Position numbers and translations under genes: made by a program. The notes below the pieces were generated by a model. That model made no database searches, was not told the origin of the DNA, and saw only the letters and a list, made by a program, of their open reading frames with translations. This document shows, piece by piece, positions 1-35,131 of a stretch of DNA of 64,000 nucleotides. Positions within the stretch are counted from its first letter, which is position 1. Each line of letters opens with the position of its first letter. Source of the stretch: Escherichia coli (GTDB lineage: Bacteria; Pseudomonadota; Gammaproteobacteria; Enterobacterales; Enterobacteriaceae); the NCBI RefSeq assembly GCF_001677475.2, contig NZ_CP015229.1. One strand, written 5' to 3'.

Positions 1-24
1 TGCGTTGACACAAGGGGAAGTTAA

Positions 25-1029
25 ATGAAAACAGAACGTATTCTCGGTGCTCTTTATGGGCAGGCGTTAGGGGATGCGATGGGGATGCCCTCCGAGCTTT
101 GGCCACGCAGCCGCGTTAAAGCACACTTTGGCTGGATTGACCGTTTTCTGCCTGGACCAAAAGAGAATAACGCGGCCTGTTATTTTAACCGCGCCGAATT
201 CACCGACGATACCTCGATGGCACTGTGTCTGGCGGATGCGTTACTGGAACGTGAAGGCAAGATCGATCCGAATCTGATTGGGCGTAATATTCTCGACTGG
301 GCGCTGCGTTTCGACGCCTTTAACAAAAACGTACTAGGTCCGACCTCGAAGATTGCTCTCAACGCCATTCGCGACGGTAAACCCGTTGCTGAACTGGAAA
401 ACAACGGCGTGACCAACGGCGCAGCGATGCGCGTCTCGCCATTAGGCTGTTTGCTTCCGGCGCGTGATGTTGATTCCTTTATTGATGATGTGGCGCTGGC
501 GTCCAGCCCGACCCATAAATCCGATCTGGCAGTTGCAGGTGCGGTAGTCATCGCATGGGCGATTTCTCGTGCCATTGACGGAGAAAGCTGGTCAGCGATT
601 GTTGATTCACTGCCTTCAATTGCGCGACATGCACAGCAAAAACGCATCACTACCTTCAGCGCATCACTGGCAGCACGTCTGGAGATTGCGCTGAAAATTG
701 TGCGCAATGCCGACGGCACTGAATCCGCCAGCGAACAGCTTTACCAGGTCGTTGGCGCAGGTACCAGCACTATTGAGTCCGTTCCGTGCGCCATTGCGCT
801 GGTTGAACTGGCACAAACCGACCCGAATCGCTGCGCCGTCCTGTGCGCTAACCTTGGCGGCGACACAGACACCATCGGTGCTATGGCGACGGCGATTTGC
901 GGCGCGTTGCATGGCGTTAAGGCTATCGATCCTACGTTAAAGGCGGAACTGGATGCGGTAAATCAGCTTGATTTCAACCGCTATGCCACAGCGTTGGCGA
1001 AATATCGTCAACAACGGGAGGCGGTATGA
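25..1029 (+). CDS. yegU: ADP-ribosylglycohydrolase family protein
   Basis: 334-aa ORF; translation recognised as E. coli YegU-like ADP-ribosylglycohydrolase; stop overlaps start of next gene (ATGA at 1026-1029). Confidence 0.85.
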   Translation: MKTERILGALYGQALGDAMGMPSELWPRSRVKAHFGWIDRFLPGPKENNAACYFNRAEFTDDTSMALCLADALLEREGKIDPNLIGRNILDWALRFDAFNKNVLGPTSKIALNAIRDGKPVAELENNGVTNGAAMRVSPLGCLLPARDVDSFIDDVALASSPTHKSDLAVAGAVVIAWAISRAIDGESWSAIVDSLPSIARHAQQKRITTFSASLAARLEIALKIVRNADGTESASEQLYQVVGAGTSTIESVPCAIALVELAQTDPNRCAVLCANLGGDTDTIGAMATAICGALHGVKAIDPTLKAELDAVNQLDFNRYATALAKYRQQREAV

Positions 1030-1991
1030 GCGGCGCTCGATTACACACGCTGCTGCCTGAATTAACCACGCGTCAGCCAGTTATGGTGATTGGCGCGGCG
1101 GTCATTGATGTGATCGCCGACGCTTATGCCCTCCCCTGGCGTGGGTGCGATATCGAACTGAAACAGCAGAGCGTTAACGTTGGCGGCTGCGCCCTGAATA
1201 TTGCCGTGGCGTTAAAACGCCTCGGCATCGAAGCGGGTAACGCCTTGCCGCTCGGTCAGGGCGTGTGGGCGGAGATTATTCGCAACCGGATGGCAAAAGA
1301 GGGCTTAATCAGCCTGATCGATAACGCCGAAGGTGATAACGGCTGGTGTCTGGCGCTGGTTGAGCCGGATGGCGAACGCACTTTTATGTCATTCAGCGGT
1401 GTGGAAAATCAGTGGAATCTCCAGTGGCTGGCGCGATTAACCGTTGCGCCTGGCAGCCTGCTCTATTTTTCCGGTTATCAACTGGCCTCGCCCTGCGGCG
1501 AATTGTTAGTGGAATGGCTGGAAGAGCTGCAAGACGTGACGCTGTTTATCGATTTTGGCCCACGTATTGGCGATATCCCGGATGCATTACTGGCGCGGCT
1601 CATGGCCTGTCGACCTTTAGTGTCACTTAATCGTCAGGAGGCTGAGATTGCCGCCGAACGTTTTGCTTTATCCGCAGAGATAACAACACTTGGCAAGCAA
1701 TGGCAGGAGAAATTTGCCGCGCCGTTGATCGTTCGTCTCGATAAAGAAGGCGCATGGTATTTCAGCAACGACGCTTCTGGCTGCATTCCGGCATTTCCAA
1801 CGCAAGTTGTAGACACCATTGGGGCGGGCGACAGTCATGCAGGTGGCGTACTTGCCGGGCTGGCCTCTGGTCTGCCACTGGCGGATGCCGTATTACTGGG
1901 CAATGCAGTGGCGTCGTGGGTTGTCGGGCATCGGGGCGGTGATTGTGCGCCAACGCGCGAGGAACTACTCCTCGCACACAAAAACGTATAG
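1026..1991 (+). CDS. yegV: PfkB-family sugar/nucleoside kinase
   Basis: 321-aa ORF with PfkB-type C-terminal motif (GAGDSHAGG); translationally coupled to yegU. Confidence 0.85.
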   Translation: MSGARLHTLLPELTTRQPVMVIGAAVIDVIADAYALPWRGCDIELKQQSVNVGGCALNIAVALKRLGIEAGNALPLGQGVWAEIIRNRMAKEGLISLIDNAEGDNGWCLALVEPDGERTFMSFSGVENQWNLQWLARLTVAPGSLLYFSGYQLASPCGELLVEWLEELQDVTLFIDFGPRIGDIPDALLARLMACRPLVSLNRQEAEIAAERFALSAEITTLGKQWQEKFAAPLIVRLDKEGAWYFSNDASGCIPAFPTQVVDTIGAGDSHAGGVLAGLASGLPLADAVLLGNAVASWVVGHRGGDCAPTREELLLAHKNV

Positions 1992-2711
1992 ATCGCTGCG
2001 ACAGTGGCTAATGCTGTACTCAATAGGCCGTTGCTGTTGGTCAAGCGCCACTTGCTTGATCACCAGCACCGGTATTTTGCTATCTAACTGAATATGTGAC
2101 TGAAACTCGGCATCCGGCATCCGGGCGCTAACGCGGGAACGCGTACGTTGTGGGTAAATGTGCTGGCTGCGGAAATAGTCATAAAGAGAAATTCCGATGG
2201 CATCAACATCATGAATTAAATGCGCCGGAACCCACGATTCCTCAATCGATACCGCTTCTTCATCGACATAGCGAATACGCTTAAGCAAAAAGACATCACT
2301 TCCCGCTTCGACCGCCAGCTGCTGCGCGACTTCTTCGGGACATTTCACGACACGCTTGTTAACCCATAACGTATCGGGCTTTTTCCCGCGCAATACCACC
2401 TGCTGAGAAAAACCTCGCGCTTCTTTCAACGAGTATTCGAAGATGTTGTTGATCTGCGTGCCGTAACCACGCGAACGCGTCACCACACCCTCTTCTTCCA
2501 GCACCTGCATCGCCTTGCGCACCGTAATGCGCGAAACGCCGGTTAACTGACTTAAATCACGCTCACCGGGCAAAATATTGCCATGCTCCAGCACCCCGCT
2601 GCGCACGGCATTTTTTACCGTTTCGGCAAACTTGATATAAAGCGGCGTGTTATCCGTCGCTAAAATACGCTCGTTCAGTTGGGCAATCAGCTGGGTATGC
2701 GCTTGTTCCAT
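1965..2711 (-). CDS. yegW: GntR-family (HutC-like) transcriptional regulator
   Basis: 248-aa ORF; N-terminal GntR HTH (RDLSQLTGVSRITVRKA) plus effector-binding domain; 3' end overlaps yegV 3' end by 27 bp. Confidence 0.85.
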   Translation of the reverse strand: MEQAHTQLIAQLNERILATDNTPLYIKFAETVKNAVRSGVLEHGNILPGERDLSQLTGVSRITVRKAMQVLEEEGVVTRSRGYGTQINNIFEYSLKEARGFSQQVVLRGKKPDTLWVNKRVVKCPEEVAQQLAVEAGSDVFLLKRIRYVDEEAVSIEESWVPAHLIHDVDAIGISLYDYFRSQHIYPQRTRSRVSARMPDAEFQSHIQLDSKIPVLVIKQVALDQQQRPIEYSISHCRSDLYVFVCEE

Positions 2712-2762
2712 TTGTCTTTTTCCTGCCGGGGAGTCTGGTGGGAGTATATCACTGCTTCTTAT

Positions 2763-3590
2763 TTAAGGCGTTTCTTTAATCCCATCAACGAATGCCTGCA
2801 ACTCCTCCGCCGTGCCATTAAACACATTAAAATCCACCGGACCATTGATGCCATCTACCTGTCCACGGTCGGAATGCTGCCAGAAGCGCCAGGCCATTCC
2901 GTCATTGTCCGGACGACGTTGATAATAGTGAGCCACCCACCACGGATATTCATTGAAATAGCCCGCCAGATTCGAGTGATAAAAAACGGCTCCTGAGTAA
3001 ATAATCGGCTTTTTTCCCGTGCGTTTTTCGACCATTTTTAGCCACTGACTTACCCGCTTGCGTAATTCTTTTGCCGATAATTTTCCCCGTTCTTCTACGT
3101 CCAGCACGGCAGGGAGATCGCCGTGGGCAAAATCCACCGTTTGCAGAAATAATCGCGCCTGAACTGAAGCGGATACCGACGGGGACAAATAATGATACGC
3201 CCCGCGCAGCAGGCCATTTTCGCGGCTTAGTTGCCAGTTACGCGAAAAATAGGGGTCCACCAGCTTTTCGCCTTCCGTCGCCTTGATAAAGGCAAACTGC
3301 AAGCGAATACCGTTATCGCGCATTTTTGCCACCCGCTGCCAGTCGATTCGCTCCTGCCAGCGTGAAACATCAATACCATGAATGGTGTAACTGGCAGGAA
3401 TGCGAATAGCAAAAGATTTGACCGGACGATAACCGTAGAAGTGGATGTAGTCTTTAATCTGAATTGCTGTCGAGTAGAAAAAATTCACCGTCTGACGCGG
3501 ATAAATTGCAACGATGGAAATTAGCCCAAGAGCGCATAATAAAGCGGTGAATTTTTTTCGACTGGTGATTCTTAGCTGCATTGGTTTCAT
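2763..3590 (-). CDS. yegX: glycoside hydrolase family 25 (lysozyme-like) protein
   Basis: 275-aa ORF with hydrophobic N-terminus; recognised as YegX-like GH25 muramidase; true start may be the internal Met at 3581. Confidence 0.8.
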   Translation of the reverse strand: MKPMQLRITSRKKFTALLCALGLISIVAIYPRQTVNFFYSTAIQIKDYIHFYGYRPVKSFAIRIPASYTIHGIDVSRWQERIDWQRVAKMRDNGIRLQFAFIKATEGEKLVDPYFSRNWQLSRENGLLRGAYHYLSPSVSASVQARLFLQTVDFAHGDLPAVLDVEERGKLSAKELRKRVSQWLKMVEKRTGKKPIIYSGAVFYHSNLAGYFNEYPWWVAHYYQRRPDNDGMAWRFWQHSDRGQVDGINGPVDFNVFNGTAEELQAFVDGIKETP

Positions 3591-3645
3591 CCCTGAATGT
3601 CAGCGCCAAAGACTGACAATAACCAAAGCAGCTATAGTAAGGTGC

Positions 3646-4446
3646 TCACCACCACGCGTGGAAGTGGTGAACCGGACCAATACCGTGACCAACTTCCAGC
3701 GTGTCGGCCTGGGCTAACGCCGATGAAAGCCAGCTTTTTGCCTCCTGTACGGTGTCAGCCCAGTTTGTATGGCGCGGGCGTAGTGCAGCCAACGCCGCAG
3801 AGAGCGTACAACCAGTGCCGTGGGTGTTTTTGGTCATAATGCGCGGTGCAGTAAATCGTTGTTCCCCCTCACGAGTAAACAGCCAGTCCGGGCTTTGCTC
3901 ATCATCCAGATGACCACCTTTCATTAGCACTGCGCCACAGCCCATCGCCAACAGCGATCGCCCTTGTTCCAGCATTTCCTGTTCGGTGCGCGCGTGTGGC
4001 GCGTCGAGCAAGGCGGCAGCTTCGGGCAAGTTTGGCGTTATTAATGAAACCTGTGGCAATAATCGACTGCGCAGCGTAGCAACCGCCGAAGGTGAAAGCA
4101 GCGGGTCGCCGCTTTTTGCCAGCATAACGGTATCAAGTACCACGTTTTTGATCTGATAACGTTGCAACCTTTCTGCCACCGCTTCAACAATATCGGTTTC
4201 CGCCAACATACCGATTTTAGTGGTGTCGATTCGCACATCGCTGAACACCGAATCGAGCTGGGCGGCGACAAAATCAGGCTCAATGCGATACACCGACTGT
4301 ACGCCACGGGTATTTTGCGCCACTAGTGCAGTAATAACTGAGCAACCATAAGCGCCAAGTGCCGAGAAGGTTTTAAGATCGGCCTGAATCCCCGCACCAC
4401 CACTCGGATCAGTACCGGCAATCGTCAGAGCGTTAATTCGTTTCAT
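3646..4446 (-). CDS. thiD: hydroxymethylpyrimidine/phosphomethylpyrimidine kinase
   Basis: 266-aa ORF, recognised as ThiD ([19 protein letters not shown] motif). Confidence 0.95.
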
Positions 4447-5231: not shown

Positions 5232-5365
5232 AGTTTGCTCCTGCCATAACGTGAAGAAGCAATGACCTGGTGGTCCGTGACTTCCCTACGCTGGCATTAT
5301 CCAGATCAGGTGATACGGGTATTTCTCAGCCTTCACGCAGAAGGGCACCCCGAGTCGTTTGGTTG
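5232..5365 (-). promoter_or_regulatory. TPP (thiamine pyrophosphate) riboswitch in thiM leader
   Basis: Minus-strand sequence reads ...GGGGTGCCCTTCTGCGTGAAGGCTGAGAAATACCCGTATCACCTGATCTGGATAATGCCAGCGTAGGGAA..., the classical thi-box aptamer, immediately upstream of thiM. Confidence 0.9.
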
Positions 5366-5453: not shown

Positions 5454-5726
5454 TTATTTGATATATGAATCCAGCACCTTCAGAACGACATCCAGATCTT
5501 CTTCACGTTTTAGCTCATCCCCCTGGTGAACGATGTGTTCCGTCAGATGACCTTTAATCACTTCCCGCATCAGACCGTTTACCGCGCCACGGATAGCTGC
5601 AATCTGTTGTAAAACTGCAGCGCATTCGTGCGGCTCGTCGAGCATTTTCTTGAGCGCCACGACCTGGCCCTGAATCTTACTGGCACGCGCTTTCAGTTTC
5701 TGTTTATCACGGATTGTATGAGACAT
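5454..5726 (-). CDS. rcnR: Ni/Co-responsive transcriptional repressor (CsoR/RcnR family)
   Basis: 90-aa ORF recognised as RcnR; divergent from rcnA. Confidence 0.95.
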
Positions 5727-5846: not shown

Positions 5847-6683
5847 ATGACCGAATTTACAACTCTTCTTCAGCAAGGAAACGCCTGGTTCTTCATCCCC
5901 AGCGCCATCTTACTTGGTGCGCTTCATGGCCTGGAACCAGGGCACTCAAAAACGATGATGGCGGCGTTTATCATCGCCATCAAAGGCACCATTAAACAGG
6001 CGGTGATGCTCGGACTGGCAGCAACTATTTCGCATACCGCAGTGGTCTGGTTGATTGCCTTTGGCGGGATGGTGATCAGCAAGCGTTTTACTGCTCAATC
6101 AGCAGAACCGTGGCTTCAGTTGATTTCCGCGGTGATCATTATTAGCACCGCGTTCTGGATGTTCTGGCGTACCTGGCGCGGCGAACGCAACTGGCTGGAG
6201 AATATGCACGGGCATGATCATGAGCATCATCACCATCATCACGAACATCATCAAGACCACGAACATCACCACGACCATGGACACCATCACGAACATGGCG
6301 AGTATCAGGATGCCCATGCACGAGCCCATGCCAATGACATTAAACGACGCTTTGATGGTAGAGAGGTCACCAACTGGCAAATTTTGTTATTTGGCTTAAC
6401 CGGTGGCCTTATCCCCTGCCCGGCAGCAATTACCGTGCTGTTGATTTGCATTCAGTTGAAAGCCCTGACACTGGGCGCAACACTGGTCGTCAGTTTCAGC
6501 ATTGGCCTGGCGTTAACGCTGGTCACCGTAGGCGTTGGCGCAGCAATCAGCGTTCAGCAGGTCGCAAAACGCTGGAGCGGATTTAACACTCTCGCTAAAC
6601 GCGCCCCCTATTTTTCCAGTCTGTTGATTGGCTTAGTTGGTGTGTATATGGGCGTACATGGCTTCATGGGCATAATGCGATAA
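5847..6683 (+). CDS. rcnA: nickel/cobalt efflux membrane protein with histidine-rich loop
   Basis: 278-aa ORF; N-terminal TM segments, central HxH/HHHHHH tract (about 6207-6335), recognised as RcnA. Confidence 0.95.
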   Translation: MTEFTTLLQQGNAWFFIPSAILLGALHGLEPGHSKTMMAAFIIAIKGTIKQAVMLGLAATISHTAVVWLIAFGGMVISKRFTAQSAEPWLQLISAVIIISTAFWMFWRTWRGERNWLENMHGHDHEHHHHHHEHHQDHEHHHDHGHHHEHGEYQDAHARAHANDIKRRFDGREVTNWQILLFGLTGGLIPCPAAITVLLICIQLKALTLGATLVVSFSIGLALTLVTVGVGAAISVQQVAKRWSGFNTLAKRAPYFSSLLIGLVGVYMGVHGFMGIMR

Positions 6684-7321: not shown

Positions 7322-8356
7322 TTAGTCGTATTTCACGTTGATTAATGCGGTTGCCTCCAGTGCGCCAGATTTAACTTTGTTTGTATCGTAGACGTAGTAA
7401 CTGGCTGTTATCGGAATTGAAACCGTTGTATCTGTAAGTTTTGACTTTGCCGCAATTTCTTTTAAATTTGTGTATCCTTTACTGCTGTTAGTGATATTTA
7501 AAAGTGTGACTGGCGAACCATTACTTTCAAGAATAAATCCTACGCCATTATCTTCCGCACCTTTCAGTATTGTGTTGCTGTTGGTTAACAAGTCAGAACT
7601 TGATAAATACACCTGCATTTTCCGTGATGTTTGATTTTGTTGACCTAATAAATTTTTACAACGCAGAATAATATCCCCTTTTTTACTATTTATTGTTGCT
7701 TTGTTACCTGTGGCTGGTAATTGTGAAACGGGAATACTGTCTAAAGTAATTAATAAATCGTCCGGTTTGCAGGTTGTGGTTATCGGGTTGTATGACAATG
7801 TCAGATTAAAGGAATAGACACCTGCATTTTGTGCCAATGCATTTCTGTAGCTATTTACACATGCATCCCATGACTTGCCACCTAATAAACACAGTAGAAA
7901 TTGTACTGCGGCACTCCCGCGTGTCGATGATGAAGCACTGGATAATGTCGCAACTCCATTAATCATCACTGAACCGCCGCCTCCCGCAGAAACATTTACT
8001 TTTGCATTACTGGACGCAGGTGTCACCGTTACCGAATAACCACTGGTGAAACTGGTCTGATTATTTGACAACGTGATGTTGTTTTTATTGGTCCATTCAA
8101 AATGTAAATTTAATTTAATGGTATCGTTATAAAGTCCAACAATAATATCCGACGGGCTCATAGGGGTGATAGTATTTGTACTCACGCATGACGAATCATT
8201 AAAATTATGCTCATAGGTCGCCATTTGTGTTTGAGTAAGTGCAAAATCCCCCTGAACAACCAAATTGTGCTGAACAGATAACTCACTATAACATGCCGCA
8301 TAGCTCACAGGCATAACCATCATCATTAATATAAATAGCATTATGCGAATTTCCAT
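7322..8356 (-). CDS. yehA: fimbrial adhesin-like protein (chaperone-usher system)
   Basis: 344-aa ORF with signal peptide; last gene of AT-rich fimbrial operon. Confidence 0.85.
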   Translation of the reverse strand: MEIRIMLFILMMMVMPVSYAACYSELSVQHNLVVQGDFALTQTQMATYEHNFNDSSCVSTNTITPMSPSDIIVGLYNDTIKLNLHFEWTNKNNITLSNNQTSFTSGYSVTVTPASSNAKVNVSAGGGGSVMINGVATLSSASSSTRGSAAVQFLLCLLGGKSWDACVNSYRNALAQNAGVYSFNLTLSYNPITTTCKPDDLLITLDSIPVSQLPATGNKATINSKKGDIILRCKNLLGQQNQTSRKMQVYLSSSDLLTNSNTILKGAEDNGVGFILESNGSPVTLLNITNSSKGYTNLKEIAAKSKLTDTTVSIPITASYYVYDTNKVKSGALEATALINVKYD

Positions 8357-8371
8357 AGAACCACCTGACTA

Positions 8372-10852
8372 TTACTGGCAAATATAATTTCTACTTTCAT
8401 CAATCTCTTTACCGAAGGTGATTGTGCATGAAAGTCCTTGTTGCTTATCAATTGCTACATTAACCGATGGCGGTACTTCATTGGTGCGAATAAATAACTG
8501 GCTTCCCTGGCCGACAACGCCAATATTATGACCATGGATATCATTGACTTCATAACCAAACGTTAATGGTTGACCATCCGCTCTTAACGCTTTTATAAAC
8601 CAGGGCTTGCGCTGATCGGTATCAAAATTAACCAGTACAACCGCGCCGCGAAAAGGGGCGGCAATTTTCCGGTTGCCACGTAATTCTGCTTCGCTATCGC
8701 TTTGCGACACATCCAGCATCAGGTGATTTTCCCGATAAGGTGTCATTCCGTCGTATACCACCACTCCATTATGGTTTGTTGTGCGATATTTTTGCCCATT
8801 GACATAAGCATCTTTAATTCCTGGCGCATTCATCACAGCAAACGTTTCGGAAAGACGGTTCGCCAGATTAACGCCACCCGACCAGGCGACAATGCCCCCT
8901 GAAACACTGGCTCCAGCCTGTCGATAAGTACTCGACTGACTATAACTGCCATTCACCGTTGCCACCGGCGCGTTCCAGGTTAAATTCGCTCCAGCTGTCG
9001 TTTCATTTCCCTGATGCTGATGACTCAGGTTGACCCCATAGTTAAATTGATCCCGGCTTCCAACGGTTCCCGATAATCCCGTATTATTTGAGGCAAAACC
9101 CTGATCATCAAACGTCGTTGAGTTAGACATATATATTTGCCGACGAGGCGTCGTAACGTCATCACCCCAATCAAAGGGAATCGATATAAAAATATTAAAA
9201 CGTTTCTCTTCATGATGATTCTCGTCATAAGCCTGGCTTGCCGCGAGGGTATAGCTTATCCGTCGCAGGTTGTTGGAATAACTCAACTGATAATCCTTAC
9301 TGCTGCCGCTACGCCCCCAGTAATCTCGCCATAACGTACTTAAGGACACAGAACCCCAGCCTTCTGGCAATGACTGGCTCATATTGGCAGAAAAGCTATT
9401 TTTACGGCCAAAATCGTTCTGGTAATAATCGGCAATGTCATAGATATCGTTTTCATCACGGCGATAATTATCTTTATTGTTTGCCCAAACGTGATCGTTA
9501 AATGTCCGGTAATCACGCGACGAATAACGCCAGGCCGCCAGACCAAAACGCGTCGACGTTTGGCTCACAAATTTGTTGTAGGCAATTTGATAACTTTGCC
9601 CGTCAAACACATCGCCGTTGTCTTGTTTACTATGCGACTTCGTGGCATCGACGGAAATGGCACCAATGCGTGTATTCCAGCCAGTCCCCAAAGTGAACGC
9701 GTAATAATTATTCGCGACCATCGATCCGCCATACAGCGTCAATAAGTTATTAAAACCATACTGATAACCCGCCTGGACAAAATCACTTTGTTTGCTCGCC
9801 CCTTCAATATGGCTACGACCCGCCGCAAAATCATATTTCGACACGCCAGGTTGCAGCATATTCGGCACCGCTGAATAAGGCACCAGATAGGTGGTTACCG
9901 AACCGTCCGCCTCTTTCACGCTGACATCAAGATCTGCTCCACCACCGGCCAACTGCAAATCTGTAATCGCAAACGGGCCAGGAGGAACCTCTTTCTGATA
10001 AACGACAAAACCATTCTGTTCAATAGTTACCAACGCGTTACTCTGAGCAATCCCCTGCACCCGTGGCGTAAAATTTTGTTTCGAGTTAGGCAACATCTGC
10101 ATATCACGAAACAACCGCACACCTCTGAAGCGAACAGAATCAAAAATATCGCTTGATGTATACATATCACCCACGCGAAGCGTGCCGAGAAGTTGGACAA
10201 ATCCACGTTCCAGATACAGGGTATTGCTTTTCCACACCCCTGGATTGTTATTTGTTTTACTGAAACTTGCATCAGAATGCAGTTGCCACCCCAGTAAATT
10301 TAACCCGCTGTTAAAACGTACATATGTACTCTTACTGTTACCCGACGCTTTATAGTCACTGTAATACTGACTCACATAATAAGAGGTATAAACCGCATTA
10401 ATACCCCGCTCCCAGTTTTCCGGTGGAACATAGCCACTTTCCAGTTCTTCCACCCAGGCCTGCGGGACACTGAAATCGAGACGAAAAACCCCGATATCCC
10501 AGGTATAGCTCCCACCCTGAACAAGTTGCTCAAATGTTAAACATTGCTTACCGCTGGCGAAGTTATCGCTATTAATGCCTAACCGCTTGATAACTTCTCT
10601 TGATAAACATGTTTCTTGCGGGTTGTCTTTAACAATAATCTCATATTTCCCGCGCCATTGCTTATTGACATAAATATCGATGTCATACTGCCCCGGCAAG
10701 GGTTGATTATCATCAAGACGAATATTTGCAACCTGCTGGTCTTTCATTCCACCTATCATAAAATGGGTATCAAAGGTTTCTTCAGCTGCATAAGCTTCAA
10801 TGCCGAGCAATAACGCTACGATTGCTGATGCAAGTGGGGTCATTCTCAACAT
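8372..10852 (-). CDS. yehB: fimbrial outer-membrane usher
   Basis: ~826-aa usher-family protein (start at Met 10852; ORF extends to 10867). Confidence 0.9.
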   Translation of the reverse strand: MLRMTPLASAIVALLLGIEAYAAEETFDTHFMIGGMKDQQVANIRLDDNQPLPGQYDIDIYVNKQWRGKYEIIVKDNPQETCLSREVIKRLGINSDNFASGKQCLTFEQLVQGGSYTWDIGVFRLDFSVPQAWVEELESGYVPPENWERGINAVYTSYYVSQYYSDYKASGNSKSTYVRFNSGLNLLGWQLHSDASFSKTNNNPGVWKSNTLYLERGFVQLLGTLRVGDMYTSSDIFDSVRFRGVRLFRDMQMLPNSKQNFTPRVQGIAQSNALVTIEQNGFVVYQKEVPPGPFAITDLQLAGGGADLDVSVKEADGSVTTYLVPYSAVPNMLQPGVSKYDFAAGRSHIEGASKQSDFVQAGYQYGFNNLLTLYGGSMVANNYYAFTLGTGWNTRIGAISVDATKSHSKQDNGDVFDGQSYQIAYNKFVSQTSTRFGLAAWRYSSRDYRTFNDHVWANNKDNYRRDENDIYDIADYYQNDFGRKNSFSANMSQSLPEGWGSVSLSTLWRDYWGRSGSSKDYQLSYSNNLRRISYTLAASQAYDENHHEEKRFNIFISIPFDWGDDVTTPRRQIYMSNSTTFDDQGFASNNTGLSGTVGSRDQFNYGVNLSHQHQGNETTAGANLTWNAPVATVNGSYSQSSTYRQAGASVSGGIVAWSGGVNLANRLSETFAVMNAPGIKDAYVNGQKYRTTNHNGVVVYDGMTPYRENHLMLDVSQSDSEAELRGNRKIAAPFRGAVVLVNFDTDQRKPWFIKALRADGQPLTFGYEVNDIHGHNIGVVGQGSQLFIRTNEVPPSVNVAIDKQQGLSCTITFGKEIDESRNYICQ

Positions 10853-29725: not shown

Positions 29726-32005
29726 ATGAGCGAGCCGTTAATTGTCGGCATCCGGCATCATAGTCCGGCCTGCGCCCGGCTGGTGAAATCGTTAATCGAA
29801 AGCCAGCGGCCACGATACGTGTTGATTGAAGGCCCGGCTGATTTTAATGACCGGGTAGACGAACTGTTGTTAGCCCACCAGCTTCCGGTAGCTATTTACA
29901 GTTATTGCCAGTATCAGGACGGTGCGGCCCCCGGGTGTGGTGCCTGGACGCCATTTGCTGAATTTTCGCCAGAGTGGCAGGCGCTACAAGCCGCACGTCG
30001 TATTCAGGCACAAACTTACTTCATCGATTTGCCTTGCTGGGCACAGAGTGAAGAAGAGGACGATTCGCCTGATACGCAAGAGGAAAGCCAGACCTTGCTG
30101 CTGCGTGCCACCCGCATGGATAACAGCGATACCCTGTGGGATCACTTGTTCGAAGATGAAAGCCAGCAAACTGCATTACCCTCTGCGCTGGTGCACTATT
30201 TTGCCCAACTGCGGGGCGACTCCCCCGGAGATGCTCTCAATCGTCAGCGTGAAGCCTTTATGGCCCGCTGGATTTCATGGGCGATGCAGCAAAATAATGG
30301 CGACGTGTTAGTTGTCTGCGGAGGCTGGCACGCTCCGGCACTGGCAAAAATGTGGCGCGAATGCCCGCAGGAAATTAACACGCCAGAATTGCCCTCGCTG
30401 GCAGATGCCGTTACAGGTTGTTATCTCACACCCTACAGTGAAAAGCGCCTTGATGTGCTGGCAGGATACCTTTCAGGAATGCCTGCCCCGGTCTGGCAAA
30501 ACTGGTGCTGGCGGTGGGGCTTGCAGCAGGCAGGTGAACAACTGCTGAAAACGGTTCTTACCCATTTGCGCCAGCACCACTTGCCTGCTTCAACAGCGGA
30601 TATGGCTGCCGCTCATCTACATGCGATGGCACTGGCACAGTTGCGTGGTCATACACTACCGTTACGCACTGACTGGCTGGATGCCATAGCAGGCTCGCTG
30701 ATTAAAGAAGCCCTGAATGCGCCGTTGCCGTGGAGCTATCGCGGCGTTATTCATCCCGATACCGATCCGATTCTGCTAACGTTGATAGACACATTAGCGG
30801 GTGACGGATTCGGTAAACTTGCCCCTTCTACGCCACAACCGCCTCTGCCAAAAGATGTCACCTGCGAACTGGAACGTACAGGAATCTCTTTTCCGGCGGA
30901 GCTTACCTTAAATCGCTTTACCCCCGATGGACTGGCGCAAAGTCAGGTGTTACATCGGCTGGCAATACTGGAGATCCCAGGGATTGTGCGCCAGCAGGGA
31001 AGTACACTGACACTTGCAGGCAACGGTGAAGAACACTGGAAATTAACCCGCCCGCTTAGCCAGCATGCGGCATTGATTGAGGCCGCATGCTTTGGTGCCA
31101 CACTCCAGGAAGCCGCACGCCATAAATTAGAAGCCGATATGCTGGACGCGGGTGGAATCGGCAGTATCACCACATGTCTTAGCCAGGCGGCGTTAGCGGG
31201 TCTGGCGTCCTTCAGTCAACAATTACTGGAGCAACTCACATTATTAATCGCCCAGGAAAATCAATTTGCCGAAATGGGCCAGGCGCTGGAAGTGCTATAT
31301 GCCTTATGGCGGCTGGATGAAATTAGCGGTATGCAAGGCGCGCAGATATTACAAACGACGTTATGCGCGGCTATCGATCGCACGCTGTGGCTGTGTGAAT
31401 CTAACGGCAGACCAGATGAAAAGGAGTTTCACGCTCACCTGCATAGCTGGCAGGCGCTTTGCCATATCCTGCGCGATCTACATAGCGGCGTTAATTTACC
31501 CGGCGTTTCTCTTTCTGCGGCGGTAGCCTTACTGGAGCGCCGCAGTCAGGCGATTCATGCCCCGGCGCTGGATCGCGGCGCGGCTCTTGGCGCACTGATG
31601 CGTCTGGAACATCCCAACGCCAGTGCCGAAGCGGCGCTGACGATGCTGGCGCAGTTATCCCCGACACAGTCCGGCGAGGCGCTGCACGGTTTGCTGGCAT
31701 TAGCCCGTCATCAACTGGCCTGTCAGCCGGCATTTATCGCCGGTTTCAGTAGTCATTTAAATCAACGGAGTGACGACGATTTTATTAACGCCCTGCCCGA
31801 TTTACGCGCGGCGATGGCCTGGCTACCACCACGAGAACGCGGGACGCTGGCGCATCAGGTGCTTGAGCATTACCAGCTCGCACAGCTTCCCGTTTCAGCG
31901 CTGCAAATGCCGTTGCATTGTCCACCGCAAGCCATTGCACATCATCAACAACTCGAACAGCAGGCACTGGCATCGCTGCAACACTGGGGAGTTTTCCATG
32001 TCTGA
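29726..32005 (+). CDS. yehM: large protein of unknown function
   Basis: 759-aa product from ATG 29726 (GAGGAAAG SD; 10 bp after yehL stop); no recognisable catalytic motif. Confidence 0.8.
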   Translation: MSEPLIVGIRHHSPACARLVKSLIESQRPRYVLIEGPADFNDRVDELLLAHQLPVAIYSYCQYQDGAAPGCGAWTPFAEFSPEWQALQAARRIQAQTYFIDLPCWAQSEEEDDSPDTQEESQTLLLRATRMDNSDTLWDHLFEDESQQTALPSALVHYFAQLRGDSPGDALNRQREAFMARWISWAMQQNNGDVLVVCGGWHAPALAKMWRECPQEINTPELPSLADAVTGCYLTPYSEKRLDVLAGYLSGMPAPVWQNWCWRWGLQQAGEQLLKTVLTHLRQHHLPASTADMAAAHLHAMALAQLRGHTLPLRTDWLDAIAGSLIKEALNAPLPWSYRGVIHPDTDPILLTLIDTLAGDGFGKLAPSTPQPPLPKDVTCELERTGISFPAELTLNRFTPDGLAQSQVLHRLAILEIPGIVRQQGSTLTLAGNGEEHWKLTRPLSQHAALIEAACFGATLQEAARHKLEADMLDAGGIGSITTCLSQAALAGLASFSQQLLEQLTLLIAQENQFAEMGQALEVLYALWRLDEISGMQGAQILQTTLCAAIDRTLWLCESNGRPDEKEFHAHLHSWQALCHILRDLHSGVNLPGVSLSAAVALLERRSQAIHAPALDRGAALGALMRLEHPNASAEAALTMLAQLSPTQSGEALHGLLALARHQLACQPAFIAGFSSHLNQRSDDDFINALPDLRAAMAWLPPRERGTLAHQVLEHYQLAQLPVSALQMPLHCPPQAIAHHQQLEQQALASLQHWGVFHV

Positions 32006-33134
32006 ACTGAACGATCTTCTGACCACCCGTGAGCTACAACGCTGGCGATTAATTCTTGGAGAAGCGGCAGAAACGACGCTTTGTGGGCTGGATGACAACG
32101 CCCGGCAGATAGACCACGCGCTGGAGTGGCTGTATGGGCGCGATCCTGAACGGCTCCAGCGTGGTGAACGTTCCGGTGGATTAGGTAGCTCAAATCTCAC
32201 CACCCCTGAGTGGATCAACAGTATTCACACGCTGTTTCCGCAACAGGTGATTGAGCGGCTGGAAAGCGATGCCGTACTGCGCTACGGCATTGAAGATGTG
32301 GTGACGAATCTCGACGTGCTGGAACGTATGCAGCCTTCTGAAAGCCTGCTACGCGCCGTTTTGCACACCAAACATCTGATGAATCCCGAAGTACTGGCTG
32401 CCGCCCGCCGGATAGTGCGCCAGGTTGTTGAAGAAATTATGGCTCGACTGGCAAAGGAAGTTCGTCAGGCTTTTTCTGGTGTCCGCGATCGCCGTCGCCG
32501 CTCATTTATTCCACTGGCGCGAAACTTTGATTTCAAAAGTACTCTGCGCGCCAACCTGCAACACTGGCACCCGCAACACGGCAAGTTGTATATCGAATCC
32601 CCCCGCTTTAACAGCCGCATTAAACGCCAAAGCGAACAATGGCAACTGGTCTTACTGGTTGATCAAAGCGGCTCGATGGTTGACTCGGTGATCCACTCAG
32701 CGGTGATGGCGGCCTGTTTGTGGCAGTTACCCGGCATTCGTACCCATCTGGTGGCGTTTGACACAAGCGTCGTTGATCTCACGGCAGACGTTGCCGATCC
32801 GGTAGAACTATTAATGAAAGTACAACTGGGCGGCGGAACCAATATCGCCAGTGCCGTGGAGTATGGTCGGCAACTTATTGAACAACCAGCAAAAAGCGTC
32901 ATTATCCTCGTGAGCGATTTTTATGAAGGAGGTTCATCATCATTGCTGACGCATCAGGTGAAAAAATGTGTCCAGAGCGGCATCAAAGTGCTGGGACTGG
33001 CGGCGCTCGATAGCACCGCAACACCTTGCTATGACCGCGATATGGCCCAGGCACTGGTTAATGTCGGTGCACAAATAGCCGCCATGACGCCGGGCGAACT
33101 GGCATCATGGCTGGCGGAGAATCTTCAGTCATGA
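31998..33134 (+). CDS. yehP: von Willebrand factor A (VWA) domain protein with MIDAS motif
   Basis: 378-aa product; start ATG overlaps yehM stop (ATGTCTGA); MIDAS-like LVLLVDQSGSM. Confidence 0.85.
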   Translation: MSELNDLLTTRELQRWRLILGEAAETTLCGLDDNARQIDHALEWLYGRDPERLQRGERSGGLGSSNLTTPEWINSIHTLFPQQVIERLESDAVLRYGIEDVVTNLDVLERMQPSESLLRAVLHTKHLMNPEVLAAARRIVRQVVEEIMARLAKEVRQAFSGVRDRRRRSFIPLARNFDFKSTLRANLQHWHPQHGKLYIESPRFNSRIKRQSEQWQLVLLVDQSGSMVDSVIHSAVMAACLWQLPGIRTHLVAFDTSVVDLTADVADPVELLMKVQLGGGTNIASAVEYGRQLIEQPAKSVIILVSDFYEGGSSSLLTHQVKKCVQSGIKVLGLAALDSTATPCYDRDMAQALVNVGAQIAAMTPGELASWLAENLQS

Positions 33135-35131
33135 ATTCACTACGTCCGGAATTATTAGAACTGACACCGCAGGCGCTGACGGCGTTAAGCAATGCCGGTT
33201 TTGTGAAGCGCAGTCTTAAGGAACTGGAAAATGGCAACGTCCCGGAAATCAGCCATGAGAACGGTGTTTTACTCGCCACGTTCAGTGACGGTGTCCGTAC
33301 CCAACTGGCGAACGGTCAGGCACTGAAAGAGGCTCAGTGCAACTGCGGGGCCAGCGGCATGTGCCGTCATCGCGTGATGCTGGTGTTAAGTTATCAACGA
33401 CTTTGCGCTACCGCCCAGCCCACGGAAAAAGAAGAAGAGTGGGATCCAGCAATCTGGCTGGGAGAGCTGGCAACCCTACCCGATGTCACCCGTAAACGTG
33501 CACAAGCTCTTGTCGCTAAAGGCATCACCATTGAGTTGTTCTGTGCGCCGGGCGAAATTCCCTCTGCCCGCTTACCGATGAGTGATGTGCGTTTTTATTC
33601 CCGCAGCAGCATTCGTTTCGCACGCTGTGATTGTATTGAAGGCACGCTGTGTGAACATGTAGCACTGGCTGTGCAGGCCTTCGTCGAGGCCAAAACTCAG
33701 CAAGCGGAATTTAACCATTTGATCTGGCAGATGCGCAGCGAACACGCCGCATCATCTGACGATCCATTTGCCAGCGAAGAAGGCAAAACGTGTCGTCAAT
33801 ATGTTCAGCAATTAAGTCAGGCATTATGGCTGGGCGGCATCAGCCAGCCGCTTATTCATTACGAGGCTGCTTTCAGCCGCGCGCAGCAAGCGGCGGAACG
33901 CTGCAACTGGCGCTGGGTAAGTGAATCACTACGACAGCTACGGGCAAGCGTTGATGCCTTCCACGCCCGCGCCAGCCACTACCATGCCGGAGAATGCTTA
34001 CGTCAGCTTGCGGCATTAAACAGTCGATTAAATTGCGCACAAGAGATGGCCCGGCGCGACAGTGTTGGTGAAGTTCCTCCCATGCCGTGGCGCACGGTCG
34101 TTGGCGCTGGCATTGCCGGAGAAGCAAAGCTTGATCATCTGCGGCTGGTGTCTTTAGGTATGCGTTGCTGGCAGGATATTGAGCAGTATGGTTTACGCAT
34201 CTGGTTTACCGATCCCGACACCGGCAGTATTTTGCATCTTTCGCGTAGTTGGCCGAGAAGCGAACAGGAAAACTCACCGGCAACGACGCGTCGGCTGTTT
34301 AGTTTTCAGGCTGGCGCACTGGCTGGTGGGCAAATTGTTTCACAAGCAGCAAAACGCAGTGCCGATGGCGAGCTGCTGTTAGCTACCCGCAACCGCTTAA
34401 GCAGCGTTGTGCCGCTGTCGCCAGACGCCTGGCAAATGTTGAGCGCGCCATTGCGCCAGCCGGGCATTGTGGCTTTGCGGGAATATTTACGCCAGCGTCC
34501 CCCCGCCTGCATACGGCCTCTTAATCAGGTGGATAACTTATTTATTCTGCCAGTCGCTGAGTGTATTTCACTCGGTTGGGATAGCAGCCGCCAGACGCTG
34601 GATGCGCAGGTAATCAGCGGCGAAGGTGAAGATAATCTGCTGACGTTATCACTGCCAGCCTCAGCCAGTACGCCTTATGCCGTTGAACGTATGGCGGCGC
34701 TTTTGCAACAAACAGAGGACCCCGTGTGTCTGGTTTCTGGCTTTGTCAGTTTTGTAGAGGGGCAATTGACACTGGAACCACGGGTGATGATGACAAAAAC
34801 CCGCGCCTGGGCGCTGGACGCAGAAACTGCGCCTGTGGCACCGCTACCTTCTGCCAGCGTTTTGCCTGTGCCGTCTACCGCTCATCAGTTGCTGATGCGC
34901 TGCCAGGCGTTACTTATTCAACTGCTCCATAACGGTTGGCGCTATCAGGAACAGAGTGCTATTGGTCAGGCAGAGTTGCTGGCGAATGACCTCACCGCGG
35001 TGGGTTTTTATCGGCTGGCACATGTGTTGGCACAATTTCGTAATACAGAAAGCGAGGCATGGGTAGAAGCAATGAATAACGGTGTTTTACTTTGCGAACA
35101 ATTATTCCCCATGCTTCAGCAACAAGGATGA
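33131..35131 (+). CDS. yehQ: protein with two SWIM-type zinc-finger motifs
   Basis: Start ATG overlaps yehP stop (ATGA); two CxCx5CxH motifs (CNCGASGMCRH from 33338; CDCIEGTLCEH). Confidence 0.8.
   Translation: MNSLRPELLELTPQALTALSNAGFVKRSLKELENGNVPEISHENGVLLATFSDGVRTQLANGQALKEAQCNCGASGMCRHRVMLVLSYQRLCATAQPTEKEEEWDPAIWLGELATLPDVTRKRAQALVAKGITIELFCAPGEIPSARLPMSDVRFYSRSSIRFARCDCIEGTLCEHVALAVQAFVEAKTQQAEFNHLIWQMRSEHAASSDDPFASEEGKTCRQYVQQLSQALWLGGISQPLIHYEAAFSRAQQAAERCNWRWVSESLRQLRASVDAFHARASHYHAGECLRQLAALNSRLNCAQEMARRDSVGEVPPMPWRTVVGAGIAGEAKLDHLRLVSLGMRCWQDIEQYGLRIWFTDPDTGSILHLSRSWPRSEQENSPATTRRLFSFQAGALAGGQIVSQAAKRSADGELLLATRNRLSSVVPLSPDAWQMLSAPLRQPGIVALREYLRQRPPACIRPLNQVDNLFILPVAECISLGWDSSRQTLDAQVISGEGEDNLLTLSLPASASTPYAVERMAALLQQTEDPVCLVSGFVSFVEGQLTLEPRVMMTKTRAWALDAETAPVAPLPSASVLPVPSTAHQLLMRCQALLIQLLHNGWRYQEQSAIGQAELLANDLTAVGFYRLAHVLAQFRNTESEAWVEAMNNGVLLCEQLFPMLQQQG

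Follow-up and report, generated by a model that had tools for sequence, protein, structure and literature searches.

Gene content and layout of the yegTUV-yegW locus

The stretch of DNA analysed here, hereafter the window, comprises 64,000 nucleotides (nt) of Escherichia coli (NCBI RefSeq assembly GCF_001677475.2, contig NZ_CP015229.1), and the subject of this work is the yegTUV operon and the neighbouring regulatory gene yegW at its left end. The products of yegU and yegV, a hydrolase-fold protein and a putative kinase, are predicted from comparative evidence to act one after the other on the same imported small molecule. The features on which this prediction draws are located as follows (window positions; ORF, open reading frame; aa, amino acids).

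Positions 1-28, plus strand: 3' end of yegT, homologue of NHS-family nucleoside:H+ symporters (RefSeq annotation of the syntenic locus L001)
Positions 25-1029, plus strand: yegU, enzyme of the ADP-ribosylglycohydrolase (ARH) fold, 334 aa (ORF list, PF03747)
Positions 1026-1029, plus strand: ATGA start/stop overlap of yegU and yegV (read in the sequence)
Positions 1026-1991, plus strand: yegV, PfkB-family kinase, 321 aa (ORF list, PF00294)
Positions 1965-1991, both strands: tail-to-tail coding overlap of yegV and yegW, 27 nt (read in the sequence)
Positions 1965-2711, minus strand: yegW (= ggaR), predicted HutC-subfamily GntR regulator (ORF list, GntR and UTRA domains)

The first gene of the operon, yegT, is truncated by the window edge and the remainder lies off-window; its last codons and stop occupy positions 2-28, where frame 2 reads ...ALTQGEVK*, and a second ATGA overlap, of yegT with yegU, was read at positions 25-28. 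A Shine-Dalgarno-like sequence, GGGAGG, lies 5 nt 5' of the yegV ATG. The gene positions, the yegU/yegV ATGA overlap, the 27-bp yegV/yegW overlap and the four domain identities (YegU, YegV, YegW and the GH25 homologue YegX) given in a preliminary description of this DNA were borne out by the ORFs, the sequence and Pfam, with the correction that yegW, which had been called divergent, is convergent with yegV. No NCBIfam model was reached at its cut-off by YegU, YegV, YegW or YegX, and YegX had no NCBIfam match at E <= 1e-5, so that no specific name could be transferred to the four proteins.

The locus belongs to the core E. coli genome, is annotated already, and its regulation has been published. 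By megablast, window 1-3700 was matched in 5,424 of 5,426 complete E. coli genomes with the same gene names. The closest complete genome had 98.0% DNA identity over window 1-3700, and the best value for window 30000-33700 was 97.0%. The window thus comes from an Escherichia lineage that stands somewhat apart, differing by 2-3% from all complete RefSeq E. coli genomes and lying outside the well-sampled diversity.

Coupling of the hydrolase and kinase genes

A phmmer search of the full library with YegU gave 235 representative clusters at E <= 1e-30, and domain fusions were counted in the 120 full-length proteins among the best 150 YegU-like representatives. ARH and PfkB domains were found on one polypeptide in 13 of these 120 proteins, six in the order ARH-PfkB and seven in the order PfkB-ARH, indicating that the fusion arose at least twice. 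With scores of up to 135 bits (E = 2e-37), several kinase domains from the fusions are closer matches to YegV than is any ribokinase of solved structure. In distant YegU orthologues (31-56% identity), the ARH and PfkB genes are adjacent, usually together with a gene for a GntR/UTRA regulator.

The importer that accompanies the two enzymes differs between loci. An NHS importer was found in Enterobacterales, Vibrio and Woeseiaceae loci; an NCS1 (Transp_cyt_pur) permease in loci L002, L008, L010, L014 and Aeromonas L095, of which L008 also carries a PNP_UDP_1 gene; ECF-type components adjoin one ARH/PfkB fusion; and an ABC importer, with a GntR/UTRA regulator and a second ARH gene, adjoins one ARH/PfkB fusion. 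Staphylococcal mobile elements bear a triad of ARH, NCS1 and ribokinase genes (PMC3637587).

In a conservation survey of 80 species-representative genome loci, yegT-yegU-yegV with yegW was kept across Enterobacterales, Vibrio/Photobacterium and Woeseiaceae, and Aeromonas had the NCS1 version. Of 74 related loci, 39 had yegU and yegV overlapping by 4 nt, and in nearly all of the rest the two genes lay within 23 nt of each other.

Because the fusions are accompanied by a recurring trio with swapped importers, both enzymes would act on one imported small molecule, and there is strong comparative evidence that YegU and YegV catalyse consecutive steps on it. The preliminary description had proposed a two-step pathway on a ribosyl or nucleoside-like molecule, and that part of it is supported by the fusions, the tight junctions and the recurrence with varied importers. 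What is new here is the presence of fusions in both orders at the frequency given above, and the recurrence of the trio of hydrolase, kinase and GntR/UTRA regulator with NHS, NCS1, ECF and ABC importers.

Several variants of this arrangement were observed. A protein of 692 aa (P0162) is a tandem ARH-ARH protein, and a second, divergent ARH gene stands beside the ARH/PfkB pair in several distant loci (L012, 1815-3209; L098, 7511-8500), a hint that some forms of the module cleave ribosyl groups in more than one step. Vibrio loci carry an extra MFS_1 transporter gene between yegV and a co-directional yegW (L070, 10056-11276), and Woeseiaceae loci carry a second PfkB kinase gene after yegV (L088, 10155-11084). 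Orphan YegU-like genes with 63-66% identity were found in Brenneria, Lonsdalea, Edwardsiella and Serratia (L080, L081, L082, L086, L087, L092 and L093; at about 7900-9800).

The hydrolase YegU

YegU matches PF03747 (ADP_ribosyl_GH) at 2e-66 and 224.9 bits against a cut-off of 26.2, over profile positions 1-285 of 287. The motifs for metal binding and catalysis are intact (E24, D61-D62-T63 and G279-D280-T281-D282-T283); across 21 orthologues, conservation of E24, D61-D62-T63 and D280-T281-D282-T283 is complete or at least 90%, and the same residues align to the ARH3 motifs (ARH3 E41, D77/D78 and D314/D316/T317, with residue names taken from PDB entry titles). The AlphaFold2 model (confidence score pLDDT 97.2) has the all-alpha ARH fold, and a Foldseek search with it gave template modelling (TM) scores of 0.81 to MJ1187 and of 0.75-0.79 to ARH3 and DraG, with the Tri1 pair also matched.

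The models for specific functions within the fold were not reached at their cut-offs. YegU scored 80 bits against the DraG equivalog TIGR02662 (cut-off 337) and 70 bits against the Tri1 equivalog NF041672 (cut-off 490), and it matches PF03747 alone, which places it outside the PsuG (indigoidine synthase A-like) family. In the substrates of ARH enzymes, the scissile bond lies at C1 of the ribose, which bears a 5'-phosphoryl group.

The kinase YegV

YegV matches PF00294 (PfkB) at 2e-55 and 189 bits (cut-off 25.8). The GG dipeptide and the DTxGAGD catalytic and anion-hole motif are present; among 17 orthologues, G53-G54, D263, G268 and D269 are invariant, and T264 and G266 are at least 90% conserved. 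The PfkB fold was confirmed by the AlphaFold2 model (pLDDT 93), for which the closest structures are ribokinases, nucleoside kinases and pseudouridine kinase, with 17-26% identity. Ribokinases are the best sequence matches among solved structures, and the ribokinase equivalog TIGR02152 gave 82 bits against a cut-off of 299.65. By these matches, YegV is assigned to the ribokinase/nucleoside-kinase structural clade but is not a ribokinase. Fold searches confirmed the folds of YegU and YegV and gave no discrimination of the substrate class. A 2025 preprint still names YegV an uncharacterised sugar kinase.

The YegV family was aligned to E. coli RbsK to compare the substrate pocket, with N14, D16, K43, N46, E143 and D255 as the residues taken to contact ribose in ribokinase structures. 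The family keeps D16, G41-G42, N46 and the catalytic D255. At the position of N14 it has V, F, I, L or A (V in YegV itself); at K43 it has C or S (C in YegV), with a gap in five fused kinases; and at E143 it has S, G, A or another residue (S in YegV). I110 is replaced by F in nearly all members and A98 by C in most. The same replacement pattern is found in the NCS1-linked kinases, and the fused kinases have most of the replacements: position 14 is hydrophobic or small, position 43 is never Lys, and position 110 is, with one exception, Phe. The replaced residues are presumably among those that hydrogen-bond ribose, and the retained Asp and Asn presumably hold the 2',3'-diol. Read in this way, the pocket favours a ribofuranoside other than free ribose as the substrate of YegV.

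Regulation by YegW

YegW contains a GntR winged helix-turn-helix domain (PF00392, 9e-16, 57.8 bits) and a UTRA domain (PF07702, 2e-36, 125.1 bits), and its best solved relative is YvoA/NagR. With the former domain N-terminal and the latter C-terminal, YegW is assigned by its domains to the HutC subfamily of GntR regulators.

Under the name GgaR, given to it in 2024, YegW was described as a repressor with yegTUV as its single target (Saito et al. 2024, PMC10819704). In chromatin immunoprecipitation on arrays (ChIP-chip), it bound the fbaB/yegT spacer only, plus a weaker site inside yegT (PMC10819704); these operators, upstream of and inside yegT, fall outside the window. With Northern blots and quantitative reverse-transcription PCR as the transcript assays, a 3.3-kb yegTUV mRNA was seen only in the yegW deletion, and the derepression was about 30-fold (PMC10819704). 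Throughout the growth phases, the reported GgaR level stays at some 20 molecules per cell (PMC10819704). In electrophoretic mobility shift assays, 10-100 uM ADP-glucose released GgaR from DNA, and ADP and glucose, the sole control ligands, did not (PMC10819704). The yegW deletion accumulated about 2-fold more glycogen at 6 h, and lower glycogen is reported for a yegV deletion (PMC10819704). A crystal structure of YegT has also been published, without a reported substrate.

The transcripts of a yegW deletion had been suggested beforehand as a check on co-regulation, and the published yegTUV derepression provides this check, with co-regulation as the outcome (PMC10819704). The statement in the preliminary description that the physiological role is unknown no longer holds for the regulator, its target yegTUV, the ADP-glucose effector and the glycogen phenotype, all published in 2024.

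A candidate promoter of yegW was located in the window.

Positions 2743-2751, minus strand: candidate extended -10 element of a yegW promoter, TGATATACT, about 31 nt 5' of the yegW ATG

Judged by eye, a TATA(C/A)T-like hexamer is present at a like distance in most of 44 listed Enterobacteriaceae loci, and it is kept whether the upstream gene is yegX, thiD or another. Since the element is kept whatever the upstream gene, TGATATACT suggests that yegW has its own promoter, independent of yegX. A scan of the locus with consensus promoter and terminator models gave nothing above shuffle expectation.

Proposed pathway and alternative explanations

We propose, with a probability of about 50%, that yegTUV is an uptake-and-cleavage operon for an exogenous riboside, in which the kinase acts before the hydrolase and which is repressed by YegW. 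YegT, as an NHS permease, would import a nucleoside-like riboside; YegV would phosphorylate the intact riboside, presumably at the 5'-OH; and YegU would hydrolyse the bond at ribose C1 to give ribose 5-phosphate and the aglycone. YegW, the published repressor of the operon, would keep it off until released by a phosphorylated pathway metabolite, and ADP-glucose, so far the sole positive GgaR ligand, may mimic the true metabolite. As YegV keeps the diol-binding Asp and Asn and the catalytic Asp and replaces three ribose contacts, phosphorylation of the intact riboside as the first step is favoured. The opposite order, deglycosylation followed by phosphorylation, had been put forward in the preliminary description; it is not supported by a kinase with this pattern at the positions of RbsK N14, K43 and E143.

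Several points weigh against this proposal. A literature search on ARH proteins paired with PfkB/ribokinase proteins, with a riboside or with a permease found no biochemical assignment. The fold search, which used a predicted model of YegV, fails to separate ribokinases from nucleoside kinases. The Salmonella aminoimidazole riboside (AIRs) kinase (1tyy) matches YegV at E = 1.8e-4 only; orthology of the two was rejected on this value, and by sequence the AIRs kinase is an analogy to YegV, not an orthologue. The orphan YegU-like genes usually stand with a gene for a YegW-like regulator and no kinase gene, with neighbours that include 2-hydroxyacid dehydrogenase genes, so the hydrolase can be kept alone. 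Ribose-utilisation loci of Bacteroides pair ARH genes with genuine ribokinases, and their authors favour hydrolysis first (bioRxiv 574913). The published ADP-glucose ligand and glycogen phenotype (PMC10819704) are left unexplained by a model in which the kinase acts first.

The observation from Bacteroides leads to the first alternative, ribose scavenging in which YegU strips the aglycone and YegV then phosphorylates the freed ribose or the aglycone. E. coli already has the ribokinase RbsK for free ribose, and ARH-family substrates carry a 5'-phosphoryl group on the ribose that is cleaved; both points count against such a scheme. The position of ribokinases as the best sequence and structure matches of YegV speaks for the scheme and is set against 82 bits where 300 are needed for a ribokinase and against the replacement of N14, K43 and E143 throughout the YegV family. 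The gene order, hydrolase then kinase, would also suit it, but fusions in both domain orders make gene order uninformative. Even with ARH genes beside ribokinases in the Bacteroidetes ribose-utilisation loci, which are induced by ribose (bioRxiv 574913), we regard hydrolysis as the first step in yegTUV as unlikely.

A second alternative follows the published interpretation (Saito et al. 2024), in which YegTUV make, import or modify ADP-glucose as a glycogen precursor and YegW senses it. The release of GgaR by 10-100 uM ADP-glucose and not by ADP or glucose, the roughly doubled glycogen at 6 h in the yegW deletion and the lowered glycogen in the yegV deletion argue for it; just two control ligands were tested, and the enzymes were not assayed (PMC10819704). 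ADP-glucose is without a ribose-C1 leaving group of the ARH type, and no glycogen-metabolism gene was flagged among the annotated neighbours in the examined loci. With four importer classes, some of them on mobile elements, an exogenous substrate fits better than an internal precursor, and the ADP-glucose interpretation of the operon appears distinctly improbable. That YegU is a true de-ADP-ribosylase of protein or nucleic acid, like DraG, Tri1 and ARH3, and only incidentally linked to yegT and yegV is very improbable: its ARH catalytic motifs are fully conserved and its fold matches ARH3, DraG and the Tri1 pair, but it reaches only 80 of 337 bits for DraG and 70 of 490 for Tri1, no ADP-ribosyltransferase or toxin partner was found among the annotated neighbours, and fusion to a sugar kinase recurs among its relatives, whose genes are found with those of small-molecule importers and a metabolic GntR/UTRA regulator.

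Starting again from the kinase-first uptake operon, a wider proposal can be made tentatively, namely that YegU and its relatives are riboside-5'-phosphate glycosidases which, together with a PfkB riboside kinase, form a widespread mobile and often fused salvage pathway, with ADP-glucose as a mere mimic. If so, the ARH fold would have been recruited from macromolecular de-ADP-ribosylation to small-molecule catabolism, and possible ribosides include modified or alpha-linked nucleosides, pyridine ribosides and the ribosyl-adenosine released when poly(ADP-ribose) is broken down. The fold is known mainly for reversing protein ADP-ribosylation, and a new reaction class for the ARH family is possible. 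No function has so far been assigned to yegT, yegU or yegV, which all belong to the E. coli core genes; knowledge of the substrate would give functions to three y-genes and would explain a module that spans Enterobacterales to staphylococcal mobile elements. The fusions, the importer swaps and the prediction that the kinase acts first narrow the search for it. The convergent overlap and yegX, described in the following sections, add nothing unusual to this picture.

The convergent overlap of yegV and yegW

In the 61 loci with both genes, the overlap was exactly 27 nt in 42, comprising all sampled Enterobacteriaceae and Pectobacterium; seven Pantoea/Erwinia-type loci had 14 nt, two loci had 4 nt, and gaps were found elsewhere. 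Within the 27 nt, almost all differences among the 42 loci are at third positions of yegW codons. The YegW C-terminus was LYVFVCEE* in 41 of the 42 loci, and the YegV tail occurred in 18 variants. Selection on the 27-bp overlap itself was rejected, given the variation on yegW third positions and the unconstrained YegV tail. The overlap persists because yegV reads into a strongly constrained yegW end, and it is, judged from this pattern of variation, a passive consequence.

A terminator scan found no terminator-like site at the yegV/yegW junction, and as no space for an intergenic terminator exists between the two genes, the transcripts must overlap. By RNA-seq, yegV-yegW is listed among 165 convergent excludons in the core excludome of E. 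coli MG1655 (PMC12288877). The 27-nt coding overlap, the junction without a terminator and this listing agree with the definition of an excludon by overlapping antisense transcripts, and induced yegTUV transcription could lower yegW expression through the overlap.

A perfect 7-bp hairpin, GCGAGGA-ACTAC-TCCTCGC, was found at positions 1957-1975, built from the Glu-Glu codons of both genes. A role for it as a terminator in both directions or as a processing site was rejected, since its left arm varies across genera and there is no T-run on either strand.

yegX and the variable slot upstream of yegW

The region between yegW and thiD contains a further gene.

Positions 2763-3590, minus strand: yegX, GH25 muramidase homologue (ORF list, PF01183); the RefSeq start lies at window 3581, giving 272 aa

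YegX matches PF01183 (Glyco_hydro_25) at 2e-54 and 185 bits (cut-off 27), and its D74 and D164-V-E166 align with identical residues of the Bacillus anthracis GH25 lysozyme 2wag. We take D74 and D164/E166 to be the GH25 catalytic positions. The best phage matches of YegX are GH25 endolysins with at most 41% identity. The N-terminus is basic and then hydrophobic at about residues 13-31 (mean hydropathy 1.84), a segment that may serve as a signal peptide or anchor the protein in the membrane. The earlier term "secreted" is suggested by such an N-terminus and goes beyond what it shows.

Among the 80 species-representative loci, yegX was found in E. coli loci only (L001, L016 and L017), and thiD lies directly after yegW in Citrobacter, Salmonella, Enterobacter, Klebsiella and others. 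The GC content of yegX is 48%, against 51-56% for the neighbouring genes. On its phyletic distribution yegX was rejected as a member of the module, and its inclusion in the cluster by the preliminary description is not supported; nor does yegX follow yegW as had been said there, being upstream of yegW on the minus strand. Judged from its distribution, yegX is an E. coli-only insertion and an unrelated neighbour of the yegTUV-yegW module. A constitutive sigma-70 promoter has been mapped in the thiD-yegX spacer, and a literature search found no dedicated study of yegX.

The yegW-thiD slot (window 2712-3645) is a variable insertion site that is empty in most other genera. In E. albertii it holds a gene for a 447-aa SWIM-domain protein (L018, 2912-4255), in Superficieibacter a Mac/hexapeptide acetyltransferase gene (L020, 10793-11527), and in Pseudocitrobacter about 5 kb of other genes (L026, 10758-15615).

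Beyond yegX, the ORF list gives thiD, thiM, rcnR and rcnA. The genes thiM and thiD overlap by ATGA at 4443-4446, and a thiamine pyrophosphate (TPP) riboswitch (RF00059, 71 bits) lies upstream of thiM at window 5266-5362 on the minus strand. The gene rcnA (5847-6683, plus strand) encodes a long His-rich stretch and rcnR is divergent from it at 5454-5726, as in an ordinary Ni/Co efflux locus.

Comparison with known systems

The closest known system is the very locus described as yegTUV/GgaR (PMC10819704), with the gene order and names of RefSeq E. coli. The difference is one of interpretation: its authors read the operon through ADP-glucose and glycogen, with the enzymes unassayed, whereas the comparison made here points to an imported riboside.

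With the structurally characterised ARH proteins ARH3, DraG and MJ1187, YegU has in common the fold, the metal-ligand motifs and the catalytic Glu motif. It differs from them in that the identity is just 21-26% and in that its context is small-molecule uptake and phosphorylation, not protein modification. The closest solved relative, MJ1187, is itself without a known substrate.

In the pseudouridine catabolism of E. coli, the transporter PsuT/YeiM, the PfkB kinase PsuK/YeiC and the pseudouridine-5'-phosphate glycosidase PsuG/YeiN work together. The likeness lies in the combination of a permease, a PfkB riboside kinase and a 5'-phosphate glycosidase that releases ribose 5-phosphate, and the YegV model resembles the structure of pseudouridine kinase (TM about 0.73). 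The glycosidase has the PsuG fold there and the ARH fold in YegU, and YegV is only 17-18% identical to pseudouridine kinase (PUKI). By analogy, a pathway in which the kinase precedes the glycosidase points the same way as the order proposed for YegV and YegU; the resemblance would be one of logic, not of family membership.

A similar set of genes is found in Salmonella, where a permease is reportedly encoded by STM4065 and a GntR-type regulator by the neighbouring STM4068. In the account given in PMC3161100, the STM4066 product phosphorylates intact aminoimidazole riboside (citing Dougherty & Downs 2003), and STM4067 of the STM4065-4066-4067 operon is annotated as a putative ARH. A PfkB kinase, STM4066, thus stands beside a putative ARH, STM4067, in that account; STM4066 belongs to another PfkB subfamily than YegV, and the physiological substrate is unknown there too. 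As far as this account goes, the operon is a precedent for a kinase acting on an intact riboside and, as an analogy, points the same way.

The rus loci of Bacteroidetes (bioRxiv 574913) also bring together enzymes that cleave ribosyl groups, kinases of the PfkB family, a transporter and a regulator, and harvest ribose from ribosylated nutrients. They differ from yegTUV in that their kinases are genuine ribokinases and a hydrolase-first model is favoured, and in that they are SusC/D-based, with no ARH-kinase fusions reported there.

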